DNA of 63,693 bases, counting the filler, from an uncultured Methanosarcinales archaeon (GTDB lineage Archaea > Nanobdellota > Nanobdellia > Woesearchaeales > CALCXY01), in NCBI GenBank assembly GCA_964385185.1. It is 4 parts of 4 records of this genome, joined end to end, with 100 filler letters (N's around TTAATTAATTAA, not from the genome) between each part and the next. Parts side by side here need not be neighbours in the genome. Positions count along the whole stretch, not along the records: positions 1 to 12,506 come from CAYLOA010000001.1; 3 more parts are not named here. One strand, written 5' to 3'. Position numbers: made by a program. Positions 1 through 6,000 of this stretch are shown here, in pieces (position 1 is the stretch's first letter; each line of letters begins with the position of its first letter).

Positions 1-3000
1 GTGAAAAAAATGAACCAGCCTGAATAGTATCCCATAAGAAAACCACTTGTTTTCCAAACAGCTTAACATTCGCAATAATACTAACTAACTTACAAATCTT
101 ACCTGCATAATCAAACACTTTCTGTAACATTCCAATGGTATCAAGAAGTGGACCACTTGCATCATCAATTGCTTCCTTAATCTCTTCTTTAAGCTTTACA
201 CTTACCTCACCTTGAGGAAAGTTACTAAATGGAATATCAACTTCAAATGTCTCCCGTTCAGGGAAAGCATTAACTGATGTTGAATCAATAGAAGCAATGA
301 TATCATATGAACAATTAACATTAAAAGATAAATCATCAGCAAAATCACTCTCAAATAAGTTAAAAGCTAACATAGTATCAAGAGAGGGAATAACTCCAGA
401 TTCATCTATATCCTCAATAAAAGGCAATCCTTCCCCTTCACAGCCCACAAAAGTAACATCTAAAGGAACAGCATCCACACCAACAGATTGCAGCTGCACT
501 GCACAAAACTCACGTTGACTAATAACTTCTGCAAACTGTCGATCAATAAAAGAAGGACTACAAGATACACGAGATTGAAAGAAATTAGGGTCAGGATCAT
601 CATTAATCTGAGATAAAAATATAGTTGCAGTCTCAGATACTGAATTTCCTGCAAAATCTTCAAATCGAACAACCAGCCTTCCATCTCTTGGACCACTGAC
701 CTCAATAGCAGGTGTCTCCCAACTACAAAAGAACTTATTTACAGTCCCATTAGCAACAGCCCTGCAATTTGCAATAGGTTCACTAACATCCCCAAAGATA
801 TCGGTAAACAACAAACCAGAAACAATGGTATCATCAGTAACATTTCCAAAGACAAACAATCTTTCCCCTTTAACAATCAATCCTTGAGGGATATCCAATT
901 GCGAAGGAATTTTCTTAACAAATAAATTCTCAATAATAGGGGGTTGTGTATCAGCAACGATATCAATACTTTTAACAGCTACAGCTGTATTCCCTAAATC
1001 ATCTTCAGTAGTCAAAGTAGTCCCAATAGTAACTCGTTGATTATGGGTCATAAACAAAGTTCGATTTGCCCACACACACCTTCCATCAACACAACTATCA
1101 GCTTTATCCGTAGCACTCAGCCCAACAGGACTTAAATCCAAAAACACATTGCCCTTATCAACACCAATAACATCATCAACTTGAGCAATAAAGCTCACCT
1201 TATTATCAACAATAAAAACTCCTCTAAACTCCCCTGTATCAGTAACCAATGAAGTAACAACAGGACCTACCCCATCTTTAGTAATAACACCTAAACTAAC
1301 ATCTTCAGAAAATAGATTTCCAGCTACATCTTCTCCTTTAACAGTAATAGTAGGAGATACTGTATCTTGAATAAGTGTAGTAAATTGCCAACGACAAGTA
1401 CTCAAATTACCTCCACGATCAACACACGAAGTAGCAGATATATCCCCTGGCTTACCAAGAGCACTTAATTCTGCTTTAACACTACTAAACACTAAATTAT
1501 TATCAGAAATATTCACTTCAAGCTCAACAGGAATAAAATTAGGACCTACAAACAACAACTTCTGACCAAGTGAATCCTTAAGCACACTTCCTTCAACATC
1601 AGGTATGGTTTGGTCTACAGAGAACGTTGCACAAGTAAGACTAGTACTTTCCAACCCTAATCGATCTCGAACTTTACCACAAACGGTAAACGTTCCATCA
1701 CCAGAAGGACTGCTAAAATCTTGAGTAATAGTTTGCACACATAGTGTCTCATCTAAATCAATCACCCCTAAACTCTCCCCTCCAAAATCGTTGTTAAACA
1801 ACTCAACTTCTCCCAACCCTACACAATTAGAGGGATTATCTTGAACCGTAAAAGAGAGTTCCACAATTGTTGAAGAAGTAAGCGAAGCATCAACACCAAA
1901 AGCTGTAAATTGTGGAGCTTGATCATCAACTTGGATTTGAGCAGAAGCTTTCTCTCCCGTAAATTGCCCATTATCATCAAACAATTGCACTTCATAGGTA
2001 AACACACCACTCGGAAGAACTGTCTGTTGACTACTGGTACACCGACTAGGATCTCCTGTATCTGCACAGGTGTCAAAGACTAAGAACGGTCCAGCACCGT
2101 TAACAAACGTCCTAATTTGATTCGGTGAAATCTGAGTATCTCCATCAACAGAAGCATCTACATCTAATTGTGTAACATCCACCCGTCCTCTAAATCCAGA
2201 AATATCATCTCCTCCTCGAATATTATCTAACGTGATTGAACTTGCAAATACGGAAGCCGAATACATAGGAAGAGTTATGACTAGCATAATCATCCATATT
2301 GCAACAAATTTCGTCTGCCTCATGTAATCCTCGGGAATACTAATGTTCTATAAATAAACGAATACGTATCCATTTCAGCAAAAATACTAATATCACTCAG
2401 TTCCAACTCTTCAGGGTCTGATCCTGCTAAATCTGCATATAACACAACAAAAGTAATTTTATTCTTTTGTAAATCGCTTTGAGTAACACCAAAAGGAATA
2501 TCTACCCCTCCAACTGGCCTAGTCTTATTGAGAGGAACCTCAATTAATTGTGTTCCTGTACAAGTTCCAAACAAATTCCTATCCACACATATTTGTTTCC
2601 TGAATACATAAGGTGCATCCGTTGTCAACGTCCCTTCAACCTTATACATTCCAGGATGTAATCTAATTGTATTATCTTCACTAGGGAAATCTGCTATAGT
2701 AGTAAACTCACCCTCCCCTTCACTTGCTGTCCTTTCCAATATCAACAGAACAGAATCATTCTTTAACAAAGGCAGAGGTCTTGGATCAATAACCCAACTT
2801 CCTGCTTGCTTCACCAATCGATATTTAATAACATCATATTCGATATCATAGAATCCATTTAATTCAACATTAACACTATCCTCTTTATCAAGCTCAGTTG
2901 AAAACAACACTTCATTTCGAAGATAGTCAGGATGTGTAAACACAACAGATCCTCCTAAACAGACAGGAAACTGTCCATGGACTCCACCATTTTCATCAGT

Positions 3001-6000
3001 ATTTTCAATAAAACAACCTTCGCCTGCACAATTATAGGTAACAGCTACATCTTCAATCCCTTCGCCAAGAGCGTCCTTAACAGTCACACTAATATTACCT
3101 GAATTTCTTTTGTTAAAATCACACACCTGAGTACCACCTGTGGCAGTAGCAGCTTCTAAATGTAAAAATTCTGAGGTCATAGGTTCATTATTTCTAATAT
3201 TACTCTCCAACATATACTGGAACTTGTATCCTTGACCATTAAACGCCTCAGGATCCTCTATTTCAACAAGAGTCGGCCAACTAATGTCATAAAAGAAATT
3301 ATATCTCTGTATCCCAATATAAGGAAAGAAATCTACTCCTAATGATTCTGGTTCACACAATTCACCATTACAATTAAGGTGAAAATACATATCCCACCAA
3401 TCTAAGTAAGAAAAGTGAATATTATACAAAGGACTAAATTCTGAACCAGGTACCCTATATCCTTGATTGTAAATAGTCTCTTGAATTCTATCTCCCACAA
3501 CACTTACTTCTTCATAATTTCGAGCATCAAATACCTGCAAAGCTTGAATATATATACTAATAATAGTTTGTACCTTCTGAGCTACCTCTGATTTCCTCCA
3601 CTGCTCATTAGAACCAAAGTTAAACGTAGCATGAGTCATAGGAGGCAATTCACCCTCACCCAATCCTGTATACGGTACAAGAGTATTGAGCATAGCTTTT
3701 TCGATATATCCTTGATCAATCTCTAAGTTGGACAAAATAGTAGCTTGCTCATACATATTTTGTAATTGAATAGGCATTCGATATGCAAATTCTTCTATTT
3801 TCCTACTACCCACTGCTGTAACTAATAACGGATAATCAACAATAAACAAAATATCATTTTTAGTAACACTGGTTGTTGTATCCACAGGTCCTTGAGGTTC
3901 AATAGTAAATCCTTCATCTGCAAGGAGGGAAAATCCTTCCAAACATGCTTCTAAATTATCATTAACATACGTATCCAACTGACCTTCAATACTTGGCTCA
4001 CCATCTTTTCTATACAGTGCAGGTCTTTCACTGTCAAACTGACAGTTTCCTAGACAATTATTATCACTGCTCATGTAATACCAATACGGAATATACACTC
4101 CAGATCCAGGTGGCATCTCCACCATTTCACCATCAGTTGCAATAATATCAGCGCTAACTCCAGCTCCTAAAGGATCAGTATAACCACCTTGCAATCCTAT
4201 CTTAATGACACCATCAGTAGCAACCTGTTCTATACAGTTCTGCACATAATTTCCAATAGGTTGAAACTCTACGGGAATATCAGCAATCCTTGGCTCGAAC
4301 ACACCAATACCTGTATTAAAGTCTATGAAAAACAATCCAGCTCCGATTACAATAACAGCGCCAAGTATGGCAAAGAGTGTTATCTGACCTTTACTTTTCA
4401 TGTTTCCTCCCTAATTTGATTAATTTTTCAATATAATTAGAAAGTTTCATGGTTCTTTCATCACATTCTTTCTCTAGAAAATCAACAAGCTCATCGCTCA
4501 GCGTAATAGAAACCCTCTTTTTTGTTACTGGTCCTTTAGGCATTATATATTCAGCACCATATTAAAGTATGATTTATCTTACTTATACCATAAGTACTAA
4601 CTTTAATACTTATGCTATAAATCATACTTTTACCACCCACTATATTTAAAGCTTTCGCTAAACATCGAACAACGAAAACTAAAGAGTAGTTTTCGGAATT
4701 GAAAATCCTACTAAGATTTTCAATAAATTACTGTTTACCCCATACACATTTCTAGAATTTTGATATATAAATGTTACTATGCGCTCCCGAATAAAAGAGT
4801 ATATACATTATATTGTAATTATTATAATCAAGTATCCATTTCACTATACTAAGAGGTTGGGAGAATACAATGGAATCAGAAAATCAAGAACAAATTATAC
4901 CACTCATAGATAAACCATCTACATTTCAAGATAGGATATGCAAACTCTACGGTACTCATAAACCTAAAGCAATCGTAACTCCAGAATCACAGCGTATATT
5001 AAGAGAATTGGGTCCCTATTTTATGGAGTCTGCATATGAAGTTGAAGAAGGTGGACATACATTGAGAATTAATGGGTACACTCCAAATCAAAATATTGCA
5101 ACAACAGCGTTAGAACAACATTTTGGAACGGATTTTATATTTCACCCTATCCATAAAAAACTTGAAAATATTGAAGCAGAATTGGAGATCAAAAAAGAAG
5201 TGGCAGATGTAGGTGCAATCTATAGAATAGCACCACTCGACGATCTACAACTTTCAGATCCGTATATTCATTTACTTAATGCAAATGTAGAAGACCGACC
5301 TTTCCTAAGTGCGTGTCTTGATATGTTGGAAGAAGAGTCTGCAAATTGGTTCGGAGAAGGATTCGATACCAACAATCTTCCCACTTCACCTTTCATCCCC
5401 ACGAGGGTAATCACAGCAAAGGCACAAGAATTAGGATTAGAATCAAAAATCCCCCTGTATATTGATTCAGCCGACAAACTTGACGATACACTGAGATGGT
5501 TATATTCTGAAGAAGCAAGTTAAAGACTAAGCTTCCTAATCCTATCAGCTGCATCTTTAATCTCTTGCATAGTAGGTACTAAAGCAAATCTAACATATCC
5601 TTCTCCCGGATTAACTGAATCTACTTCATTACTAATTGCAACACCAGGAGTTGCAACCAAAGCAATCTTAGGATCTAACAACTTAGTAGCAAAATCTAAA
5701 CTTCCTAAACCTTCTTTTAACTTCTGCCAAAGGTAAATAGTCCCTTTAGGCATCGAATTAGGTAAACCAATACTTTCCAAAGCACTAGAAATAATCTCAG
5801 CTTTCTTCTTATAATCAGCATTAAATGCATCAACATGAGCTTCATCAGCCAAAGCAGCTCCTGCTGCATCCTGGATGAAAGTAGCAGTCCCTGAATCCAT
5901 ATTGGTCTTCAATTTTTTAAAACCATCAATGATTCTTTCATCACCCATTAACCATCCTGCTCGATATCCCGTCATAGCACTTCTTTTAGACATTGAATGA

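Follow-up and report, generated by a model that had tools for sequence, protein, structure and literature searches.

At the head of an operon in an uncultured archaeon, a gene for a ribbon-helix-helix (RHH) protein of only 50 residues overlaps the start of a gene for a much larger protein that carries a secretion-type N-terminus. What does such a locus encode, and what is the small gene doing in front of it? The locus lies at one end of the window, which is the whole stretch of 63,693 nucleotides that was analysed (Table 1). An earlier survey of the genome had read it as a copy of a multi-copy family of pilin-like adhesins led by mini genes. The multi-copy family, the prepilin-like N-terminus, the beta-sandwich domains and the leader mini genes of that reading all stand; the term adhesin is not supported. 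We favour the view that this region forms the start of a conserved envelope operon in a marine archaeon of the Woesearchaeales (DPANN), an order of ultra-small archaea, and we give this explanation, taken as a whole with the mechanism set out below, about an even chance of being right.

Table 1. Features of the operon head, and of a second family member, in window coordinates.
Feature	Position	Strand	Description
Gene B	2..2323	-	774+ aa, incomplete at contig end; Sec-type signal, Ig-like repeats
Gene A	2320..4401	-	693 aa; class III (prepilin-like) signal, alpha/beta domain, two beta-sandwich domains
Two beta-sandwich domains of gene A	2422..3096	-	Codons 436-660; CarboxypepD_reg / CnaB type; model, Foldseek
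Conserved alpha/beta domain of gene A	3172..4272	-	Codons 44-410; alignment; domain model pLDDT 88.3, pTM 0.85
Hydrophobic N-terminal helix of gene A	4312..4386	-	Codons 6-30, Q-I-T-L-F onward
Short basic leader of gene A	4387..4401	-	Codons 1-5, M-K-S-K-G; predicted cleavage after G5
Mini gene	4391..4543	-	First gene of the operon; 50 aa, RHH_5; ORF and Pfam match
GGAGG ribosome-binding site of gene A	4406..4410	-	Within 3' end of mini gene; sequence read
Nested inverted repeats	4564..4630		Between TATA-like box and mini gene
TATA-like box CTTTAAATATA	4641..4651	-	About 100 nt 5' of mini gene ATG; putative promoter element
Second family member (contig C14)	23170..24855	-	562+ aa, incomplete at contig end

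Operon layout and occurrence of gene A

The mini gene and gene A overlap by 11 nt (ORF coordinates), and the GGAGG read within the mini gene lies 5-9 nt 5' of the gene A ATG. The end of gene A overlaps the start of gene B by 4 nt (ATGA). The survey had likewise described the mini gene as overlapping the gene behind it. The syntenic locus is ordered RHH, A, B, C, membrane protein, A', with housekeeping genes as neighbours and no ABC transporter near gene A. The gene B cluster is present in 72 of 80 related loci, normally directly behind A. Gene B orthologues measure about 1030 aa and are evenly conserved along their length, and the product is secreted and has no membrane anchor. Judging by synteny only, the products of genes A and B probably work together.

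An iterated search with gene A against all ORFs of the source genome gave 12 ORFs (E <= 3.2e-6), and a sequence search of the same genome counted 11 matches. From the eight paralogues listed earlier, those on contigs C1, C4, C11, C14, C19, C27 and C43 are retained. The C54 protein (E 0.097) is ruled out, and members on C13, C24 and C5, plus two more on C11, are added. Paralogues, up to 12 per genome, share only about residues 1-240, and their C-terminal parts vary. No Pfam or NCBIfam family was found for the gene A product; the lack of a Pfam family, stated in the survey, holds for the window copy and nine paralogues. The second member in the window is not preceded by an RHH/AbrB gene. Gene A has a match in 148 of the 151 genomes of the order and in 41 of 47 from other orders of the class, which extends the wide occurrence noted earlier (35 of 40 relatives). 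Four marine runs were compared: the largest contig that covers gene A (X2, 207-4359) differs by one letter, and none of the runs lists a difference within gene A. Within this large family, the window copy represents the conserved core orthologue.

N-terminus and domains of gene A

Family members start with [KR][KR][GAS]/Q-[IV]-[TS]-x-F-x-I-x-G, where the slash marks the predicted cleavage site, followed by a hydrophobic helix. Position +1 is Q in all 107 family ORFs of the 80 related loci, which bears out the motif described in the survey; 98 of them have G, A or S at -1 (54, 24 and 20, respectively), and the other three read have T there. Within these 98 ORFs, -2 is always K or R, +5 is F in 93 and +9 is G in 94, while +3 is fixed in the family as T or S. 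As far as sequence can tell, the start of gene A fits a class III signal of the Epd/EppA type, save for F instead of E at +5. Curated pilin and class III signal models matched neither the gene A product nor its paralogues, nor the small KG/Q proteins described below.

The AlphaFold2 model of gene A (mean pLDDT 87.9, against 81.9 in the survey) has an N-terminal helix (residues 3-30) that a low-confidence linker separates from a confident globular part. In an alignment of gene A (n=40), C56, G72, G73 and C153 are invariant; Q6, previously described as invariant, is conserved at 90% or more, and C116 and C120, named together with it, are not invariant. The alpha/beta domain carries a near-invariant E-x-N-x-R-N-N motif. 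A structural search with the 395-residue N-domain gave no clear relative and detected no pilin fold, the best pilin row being a pseudopilin (Z 2.9).

The Foldseek matches of the survey were reproduced (TIE, 4oq1, SpaC, SlaB and BcpA, E 1.4e-7 to 8e-5), again with low TM-scores: 0.10-0.16 for the pilus adhesins, at 8-12% identity, and 0.14 for SlaB (8qox_B, E 3.9e-5). Adhesin-type matches involve only the last ~260 residues. Atlas structure rows are labelled CarboxypepD_reg and SdrD_B, and gene A shares tandem beta-sandwich domains with Gram-positive sortase-pilus adhesins of the CnaB/SdrD type (TIE 6fwv, 4oq1, SpaC 6m3y, BcpA 3kpt). Unlike these, it has no C-terminal sorting signal, as read from its C-terminus, and no LPXTG or sortase logic. 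Calling it an adhesin reflects only a generic beta-sandwich likeness. Being near-universal, syntenic and slowly varying, the window copy suits the role of a core envelope component no less well than that of a variable adhesin.

The 1.3-Mb source genome holds two Peptidase_A24 genes, one of them scored FlaK-like, and a single T2SSE ATPase, FlaI/TadA-like. Directly behind the ATPase gene is that of a 711-aa protein with eight predicted TM segments, a putative platform protein for which no T2SSF match was found. Four small, pilin-sized proteins with a KG/Q start are clustered on C13. Gene A and the ATPase operon are not linked in this genome; the ATPase cluster occurs in only 5 of the 80 related loci, upstream of A where its position was mapped.

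Several known systems resemble this arrangement in part. In Methanococcus maripaludis (PMC3875500), EppA substrates are described as having a leader of 5-13 aa with G at its end, Q at +1 and E at +5, and some predicted substrates, with genes scattered on the chromosome, are “much larger” than the major pilin. Gene A shares the short leader ending in G, the Q, the hydrophobic helix and the A24 peptidase; it differs from Epd in the F at +5, in the lack of a DUF361 match and in a globular part of ~650 residues made of unrelated domains. For DPANN, PMC13705601 describes scattered type IV filament genes and, in 1990 of the genomes screened there, Epd-like pilins. As in the bindosome and other “functionalised” type IV filaments treated there, a large non-pilin protein with a prepilin-type N-terminus is encoded away from the machinery. 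Unlike bindosome substrate-binding proteins, however, gene A shows no solute-binding fold and no nearby ABC transporter, and its conserved locus is a separate one, shared with B, C and the membrane protein. In Streptococcus sanguinis PilB and PilC, a prepilin signal and helix likewise precede extra domains, which give the filament its binding function, but these bacterial proteins have a complete pilin module, which is not detectable in the gene A product (PMC8179133, PMC9934059). Finally, archaeal type IV pilus loci encode large signal-peptide proteins, often rich in conserved cysteines and termed “minor pilin or adhesin”; gene A, large, secreted and with a type IV-associated signal, resembles them. 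In that census, DPANN are limited to one mention of Nanoarchaeota, and no RHH, CopG or AbrB regulator is named (PMC4858521).

The leader gene and its upstream DNA

The mini protein of the window matches Pfam RHH_5 (E 2.4e-7, 30.8 bits, cut-off 26), and locus L005 has an orthologue of the same type and position with 78% identity. In 39 of the 80 related loci, or 40 with the RHH_5 type of L005, the gene A orthologue is preceded by a conserved CopG-like mini gene. This mini gene is found nowhere else in these loci, except in L083 (2 kb upstream); 36 of the 76 loci having sufficient upstream DNA have no mini gene. The 5 of 29 loci counted in the survey were an undercount, and the coupling is stronger and more general than was then assumed. 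The mean column identity of the relatives' mini gene, 77%, is above that of gene A itself. Its protein has no Pfam match, and hhalign relates it to the RHH group of the window with a probability of 3.8%.

All ten operons reported earlier as led by an RHH- or AbrB-like gene of 45-59 aa were recovered in the source genome, with overlaps of 1-29 nt between leader and downstream gene. Only four of the ten leader proteins pass a Pfam cut-off, and the Pfam/NCBIfam matches are to antitoxin families (MazE_antitoxin, RHH_3, HicB, ParD). An N-terminal hydrophobic segment is encoded by 9 of the 20 genes that follow RHH/AbrB genes vs. 280 of 1175, a modest enrichment whose p value (0.03) rests on a crude hydrophobicity rule. 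Six of the 20 RHH/AbrB genes form ordinary pairs with genes labelled PIN-like from their sequence pattern only, and the relatives' loci contain inserted PIN-like genes.

Upstream of the conserved mini gene, 113 nt are 73% column-identical across 28 loci. They include the word CTTTAAATA, which is invariant there and also occurs in the TATA-like box of the window, a palindrome ATTTATACT-N6-AGTATAAAT and a TATA-like box whose core, TTTA[AT]ATA, does not vary. In the window, the inverted repeats comprise a perfect 14-nt pair (4564-4577 / 4617-4630), whose 14-mer has no further exact copy in the window, and an 18-nt palindrome (4583-4620, 89%). Folded as RNA, 4564-4630 gives z = -4.26, and none of 200 shuffles was equally good. 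The repeats are candidate operator sites or, alternatively, may form a 5'-leader hairpin. Small size, RHH_5 type, first place in the operon and palindromes over a putative promoter would liken the window mini protein to the CopG/Arc/MetJ autorepressors; the relatives' protein, in contrast, matches CopG only at E 0.7. The archaeal pilus literature searched contains no description of a leader RHH gene ahead of genes for exported structural proteins.

Models for the gene products

In the model that we favour, the gene A product would be exported with an Epd/EppA-type class III (prepilin-like) signal, and one of the two A24 peptidases would probably cut it between G5 and Q6. The Q-I-T-L-F helix would hold the mature protein in the membrane or, alternatively, seat it at the base of a short type IV filament built by the FlaI-like ATPase and the adjoining 8-TM protein; the alpha/beta and beta-sandwich domains are modelled as facing outward. 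The RHH protein, encoded on the same transcript, would most likely be a CopG-like repressor that sets the level of the whole operon by binding the palindromes found downstream of the TATA box, ahead of its own start codon. Nine other surface-related operons of the genome are built alike, and an RHH- or AbrB-type gene of its own leads each of them.

The product of gene A could also be an uncleaved signal-anchor (type II) protein that involves neither prepilin peptidase nor filament machinery, its K-G-Q-x-T-x-F start being conserved for topology or for packing of the helix against a partner. The lack of pilin HMM match and pilin fold, the flexible linker, the absence of ATPase linkage and of E at +5 all suit this idea. 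However, an invariant Q after G/A/S and two basic residues (98/107) and the fixed residues at +3, +5 and +9 are needless for a plain anchor, the same start is found on the clustered pilin-sized proteins, and two A24 peptidases are retained in the genome, so that we consider it unlikely. Less probable still is a role closer to the filament, in which the gene A product would be a large minor pilin, at the tip or as initiator, and the type IV filament would display or export B. Certain bacterial type IVb pili do have large minor pilins that carry a secreted partner from the same operon, and here a class III-like signal is combined with beta-rich C-terminal domains, a co-operonic, secreted and anchorless B, and a genome with filament machinery and small KG/Q proteins; yet the pilin module and linkage to the machinery are missing, and A', a second paralogue in the locus, and the polytopic membrane protein there are left without explanation.

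That A and B are structural parts of an S-layer-type envelope rather than adhesins, with B as outer sheet and A as membrane stalk after the pattern of two-component S-layers, is doubtful but deserves some weight. Near-universal, syntenic occurrence of gene A, an anchorless and evenly conserved B, housekeeping neighbours, the four marine runs without listed difference inside gene A and the presence of SlaB among the Foldseek rows are in line with it. The SlaB match is nevertheless weak and generic, SlaB itself has a Sec signal and a C-terminal anchoring helix, and up to 12 paralogues with varied C-terminal parts suggest varied functions. As to the mini genes, they may be leftover or orphan antitoxin genes of the VapB/MazE type that merely stand beside surface genes and regulate nothing, as the antitoxin-family matches, the pairs with PIN-like genes and the PIN-like insertions would allow. 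We regard this as very unlikely: no toxin-like gene lies behind the window mini gene, and the relatives' gene, which overlaps the start of A, occupies the same position in 39 of 80 loci, has a column identity above that of A and is preceded by conserved DNA with palindromes around the TATA box.

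A head-to-tail gene trio and its protein family

The genome under study comprises 1.30 Mb in 85 contigs, and the window is made up of four contigs stitched together with runs of N between them. Window positions 1-12506 are those of C1:1-12506, and the locus described here sits at the start of this contig. It consists of three genes (see the table): a mini gene, the gene of the 693-aa protein A, and that of a second secreted protein, B. The mini gene and A overlap by 11 nt, with a GGAGG sequence 5-9 nt ahead of the ATG of A, and A and B are joined by an ATGA overlap. The neighbours on the far side are housekeeping genes, namely those of a class I/II aminotransferase, a diaminopimelate epimerase, and a DAP-decarboxylase-type enzyme. 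A divergent 217-aa ORF, without a Pfam family, shares with the operon promoter an intergenic region of 326 nt.

A public protein record identical to A has 671 aa, corresponding to 97% of the 693-aa ORF (P0001). This public call begins about 22 codons downstream, probably because the true start falls within the mini gene, and the prepilin-like signal is thereby lost. Public gene calls can thus remove the signal peptide of the family.

Neither A nor B has a Pfam or NCBIfam family above cut-off, the best Pfam match of A being Big_1 (15.8 bits for a cut-off of 34.9). An iterated search of all ORFs of at least 40 aa in the genome gave 12 family ORFs at E <= 3.2e-6, and a separate whole-genome search counted 11 matches. 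The survey's finding had listed eight paralogues without a Pfam family. Seven of these were recovered, but the eighth, encoded on C54, gave E 0.097 and was rejected as a member; additional members were found on C13, C24, and C5, together with two more on C11. The lack of a Pfam family was confirmed, since none of nine paralogues tested passed the cut-off. The paralogues share with A the N-terminus and about its first 240 residues; a 678-aa protein of C43 alone matches beyond this, covering most of the profile in two stretches that reach about position 626. Several members are located at contig ends.

Outside this genome, 45 further protein clusters contain full-length relatives, which are 551-811 aa long, 24-49% identical, and devoid of Pfam domains; those that are named are all "hypothetical protein" of Woesearchaeota or Nanoarchaeota. 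A relative with the sequence word E-x-N-[IL]-R-N-N is encoded by 182 species genomes. Among 151 sampled genomes of the order Woesearchaeales, 148 have a family match, with 1-12 matches each (146 of 149 when the unpublished genomes G112 and G121 are left aside). In other orders of the same class, matches were found in 41 of 47 genomes, all genomes being drawn from within the class. Searched against 1.84 billion cluster representatives, the family profile retrieved 9515 proteins at E <= 0.001, 2008 of them at E <= 1e-30, and still no Pfam model exists for the family. The ESM Atlas search returned unnamed archaeal clusters only.

Features of the locus, of the A model, and of related gene sets. 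Plain numbers are window positions unless marked as residues; arrows lead to the gene that follows.
Feature	Location	Strand	Remarks
Mini gene	4543-4391	minus	50-aa ORF, first of three head-to-tail genes
A	4401-2320	minus	693-aa ORF, second of three
B	2323-2	minus	ORF of at least 774 aa, third; runs past contig end
Span affected by public call of A	4336-4401
Variable stretch inside B	116-206
TATA-like box	4641-4651
Nested inverted repeats	4564-4630		Candidate operator palindromes, after the TATA-like box
217-aa ORF	4870-5523	plus	Divergent from mini gene
Window parts	C1:1-12506; C4:64658-74944; C14; C37:1-8700		Tail of C4, all of C14, start of C37
Breaks between parts	12507-12782; 23070-23169; 54894-54993
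A model, helix	residues 3-30
A model, linker	residues 30-36		pLDDT < 50
A model, alpha/beta region	residues 44 to ~410		Followed by a loop
A model, two beta-sandwich domains	residues ~436 to 660		Followed by short C-terminal helices
RHH_5 mini gene	C1		-> A, 693 aa
RHH_3 mini gene	C27		-> family member, 336 aa
AbrB-like mini gene	C19		-> family member, 1196 aa
AbrB-like mini gene	C11		-> family fragment
RHH-like mini gene	C13		-> 5603 aa
AbrB-like mini gene	C19		-> 4172 aa
RHH_1 mini gene	C15		-> ATPase
RHH-like mini gene	C33		-> 415-aa exported protein
RHH-like mini gene	C39		-> 416-aa exported or membrane protein
MazE/AbrB mini gene	C54		-> 333-aa membrane protein
Single-pass membrane family, relatives	L012:6332-7558		And 29 other loci
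Single-pass membrane family or look-alike, this genome	C32:3573-4604; C15:11084-12241
Cluster with small KG/Q genes	C13:7520-29349	one strand	Loci L085, L086

A prepilin-like start and a modular body

Across 80 related loci, 107 family ORFs have an N-terminus, and all 107 carry Q at the predicted +1 position. The pattern [KR][GAS]Q is found in 98 of them, the other nine reading S-G-Q, S-A-Q, K-T-Q, or G-A-Q. Within these 98, position -2 is always K or R, and position -1 is G (54), A (24), or S (20); T or S stands at +3 in 91 and G at +9 in 94, and position +5 is F in 93 and Y in 3. The leader of A itself, M-K-S-K-G, is short and basic with G at -1. Directly after the predicted cleavage site comes a hydrophobic stretch of about 20 residues (mean hydropathy 2.8), which is helical in the model. 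For substrates of the Methanococcus peptidase EppA, the features described are a leader of 5-13 residues with G as its last residue, followed by Q at +1 and E at +5 (PMC3875500). E at +5 is absent from the 98 patterned ORFs; with the leader G and Q(+1) present and E(+5) replaced by F, the family shares two of these three features. A would be cleaved between G5 and Q6, and its N-terminal helix would retain the protein. At E <= 10, no curated pilin or class III signal model of Pfam and NCBIfam matched three family N-termini or the small proteins with a KG/Q start (basic residue and G, predicted cleavage, Q), HMMER filters dropping most weak matches.

In this genome, 21 ORFs combine a KG/Q start with a hydrophobic stretch. 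In one cluster on C13, the gene of a 712-aa family member is followed by an RHH-like gene of 45 aa and by the gene of a secreted protein of 5603 aa. Directly after the latter come four consecutive small genes counted among the 21 ORFs (175, 368, 161, and 180 aa), all with KG/Q or KA/Q and a hydrophobic helix; these four proteins are candidate true pilins. The idea that family members serve as general anchors of anchorless giant proteins was rejected, the 5603-aa protein having a C-terminal hydrophobic segment of its own.

The AlphaFold2 model of A, built on a 40-sequence alignment, has a mean pLDDT of 87.9 and a pTM of 0.57. When the whole model was searched with Foldseek, the matches reported by the survey were returned together with SdrD (B. 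anthracis TIE, SdrD, 4oq1, SpaC, SlaB, and BcpA; E 1.4e-7 to 8e-5), but with TM-scores of only 0.10-0.16 and 8-12% identity. At the level of the model, these matches show beta-sandwich modules and nothing beyond. Structure rows of the Atlas likewise point to sandwiches of the CarboxypepD_reg type. At its C-terminus, A has neither an LPXTG-type sorting signal nor a hydrophobic segment.

The N-domain modelled alone (residues 38-432) reaches a pLDDT of 88.3 and a pTM of 0.85, and Foldseek found nothing for it at E <= 0.001. VIA-align of this domain over 48,161 chains gave as best match a T6SS baseplate chain (Z 6.4), and a second look over the Foldseek matches gave T4 gp25 (Z 6.5); these gp25/TssE-like matches cover the first ~170 residues, at Z values below the level that the tool considers meaningful. 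Residues beyond ~175 are barely covered, and the only pilin-related row is a pseudopilin at Z 2.9. In a pilin fold, the N-terminal helix runs into an antiparallel sheet and packs on it; in A, the helix is split from the globular part by the low-pLDDT linker. A comparison of the family profile with PDB sequences retrieved only a designed protein (E 6.6e-4), taken as spurious.

A conserved locus led by mini genes

ORFs were called and clustered in the 80 related loci. The mini gene is followed by A (~710 aa) and then, normally directly, by B (~1030 aa), whose cluster occurs in 72 of the 80 loci. After some small inserted genes in certain cases come C, a 600-1450-aa protein with an N-terminal signal, a 250-290-aa protein with 6-8 TM segments, and A', a second family member of ~630 aa found in at least 19 loci, many loci ending earlier. 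On contig C43 of this genome, the tail of a C-type gene precedes A' (678 aa), which is followed by an Ig-domain protein of at least 1112 aa; therefore C1 and C43 are probably two pieces of one locus. B has no C-terminal anchor. The C-terminal quarter of its orthologues (columns ~1420-1730 of alignment A5) is a strongly conserved domain rich in cysteines, over 12 of which are near-invariant; this domain is missing from the window's copy, which is cut off there. Judged from synteny, A may act jointly with B.

Several variations were noted. In L027, L038, L045-L047, and L080, one to three small genes of 150-180 aa separate B from C; their starts read like those of PIN-domain nucleases, with no Pfam match, and they may encode such enzymes. 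In one subgroup (L061, L062, L055, and L073) the mini gene is absent, and A is preceded by a secreted subtilase of 970-1130 aa (Peptidase_S8 with cadherin-like domains) and a ~220-aa protein. A family of single-pass membrane proteins of 340-425 aa, with a conserved ~40-residue N-terminal domain, is represented in 30 of the 80 loci, where its gene lies upstream of the mini gene and A in divergent orientation. A look-alike with a cupredoxin domain adjoins the RHH-ATPase operon in this genome, and others adjoin the ATPase gene in relatives.

The relatives' mini gene encodes a 54-60-aa protein and stands upstream of A, on the same strand, in 39 of the 80 loci, overlapping A by 1-32 nt in 20 of them; elsewhere in these loci it was found only in L083, 2 kb upstream. 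The closest relative, L005, has in its place the RHH_5 type of the window. When four loci with upstream DNA shorter than 200 nt are set aside and L005 is included, a mini gene is present in 40 of 76 loci. The relatives' protein has 26 invariant columns and a mean column identity of 77%. Over 28 such loci, pairs of mini proteins have a median identity of 81.5% and pairs of A proteins one of 65%, and the 113 nt upstream of the mini gene are as conserved (71.7%) as the coding DNA of A (70.6%). A palindrome of consensus ATTTATACT-N6-AGTATAAAT lies in this upstream DNA, as do a TATA-like box of consensus CTTTAAATA with an invariant TTTA[AT]ATA core and, ahead of the ATG, further AATACT / GTATA words.

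Iterated searching of the related loci with the RHH protein of the window yielded only 2 ORFs, and it took a separate profile to find the relatives' mini gene. No Pfam family matches the protein that this gene encodes, CopG is reached at E 0.7 only (positions 1-31 of both), and profile comparison with the RHH group of the window gives a probability of 3.8%. Its assignment as a putative RHH protein therefore comes mainly from a strand-helix-turn-helix pattern. The 50-aa protein of the window, for its part, is an RHH_5 member (30.8 bits for a Pfam cut-off of 26).

RHH (CopG-like) proteins bind repeated or palindromic operator DNA as dimers. In the window, nested inverted repeats follow a TATA-like box; as RNA, they would form a hairpin as well (z = -4.26). 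The RHH protein may thus autoregulate its operon. No cognate toxin lies directly downstream of the 50-aa gene, the next gene being that of the exported A, and against NCBIfam MazE the 50-aa protein scores 22.5 bits for a cut-off of 65.

The survey had also reported ten operons of this genome led by 45-59-aa mini genes, and all ten stand, with overlaps of 1-29 nt with the next gene. Four of the ten mini genes are above a Pfam cut-off, four match weakly (E ~1e-3), and two have no match. The genome has 20 small RHH/AbrB genes in total. A gene with an N-terminal hydrophobic segment follows 9 of these 20, vs. 280 of 1175 genes overall (Fisher p = 0.03, by a crude rule); these nine include a PIN-like false positive, and a true case with a truncated target gene escapes the rule. 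Pairing with PIN-like genes, so labelled from sequence pattern only, is seen for six of the 20. Among the 11 family members with a start, seven are devoid of a leader mini gene.

Type IV machinery and possible roles of the family

Two Peptidase_A24 loci are above cut-off (62.4 and 55.4 bits), and both genes retain the stretches T-D-x-K-T-R-E-V-P-D and G-G-G-D. A contig end truncates one of the two, and the full-length one scored FlaK-like. There is a single T2SSE ATPase, FlaI/TadA-like, preceded by a 45-aa RHH_1 gene with which it shares one base. After it, with a 29-nt overlap, comes a 711-aa protein with 8 predicted TM segments, which could be the platform; this role is conditional because the protein has no T2SSF match. 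The genome's only match to PF00482 was weak; it falls within an ORF of 1163 aa resembling an SMC-type ATPase and was taken as false. The ATPase gene lies on another contig than A. Among the relatives, 5 of the 80 loci contain the ATPase cluster, 4 of them together with an adjacent T2SSF gene; where the map shows their position, these genes are upstream of A on the other strand. Gene linkage of A to filament machinery or to other pilins was not found.

The question at stake is how the cell surface of Woesearchaeales is built and how these archaea attach to other cells. We know of no member of this DPANN group in pure culture. The family offers a concrete handle on this question, being near-universal, multi-copy, large, and exported, with a recognisable prepilin-like start; its conserved five- to six-gene locus and dedicated mini regulator with candidate operator sites add to this. 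According to a 2026 census, Woesearchaeales type IV filament genes are scattered, and whether they form any structure is left open (PMC13705601). The literature searched held no description of the family; supplementary tables S4 and S5 of the same census, on DPANN type IV filament genes, were outside its scope and may include members.

Large proteins with class III signals are already a known kind. Examples are the binding proteins of bindosomes and further "functionalised" filaments (PMC13705601), large proteins with a signal peptide that are encoded in archaeal pilus loci (PMC4858521), and the modular pilins known from streptococci (PMC8179133). In contrast to each of these, as described there, the family has F at +5, a head domain without detectable relative, a conserved locus of its own, and a leader RHH/AbrB gene. 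In the archaeal pilus census, the words "copg", "abrb", and "rhh" each have 0 occurrences (PMC4858521).

The survey called the family type-IV-pilin-like adhesins. Support for the term adhesin does not extend beyond the generic domains, and a core part of the envelope fits the window's A at least as well, because of its near-universal presence, its synteny, and the low variation of this copy. A wider proposal, which we hold to be rather unlikely, is that RHH gene, A, B, C, membrane protein, and A' form a core surface apparatus of Woese- and Pacearchaeales. The family, with its prepilin signal of the F(+5) variant and its unnamed sequence clusters in the thousands, would then provide pilin-like stalks mounting large secreted proteins on the cell for host or particle contact, and a tiny RHH/AbrB repressor for each surface operon would switch the surface coat operon by operon in regulator-poor genomes.

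As to the variation, near-identical DNA occurs in marine, seawater, and hydrothermal-vent metagenome contigs of 17 studies, none of the runs listed being of RNA. Four metagenome runs were compared over positions 2-9120: the largest contig of run X2 over A (207-4359) differs at 1 letter, and no difference inside the A gene is listed for any of the four. Finally, differences and contig breaks pile up in a short stretch inside B (13 substitutions and 4 small indels), the rest of the region being almost invariant; this is a local variable or repeated stretch, which probably caused the contig end.
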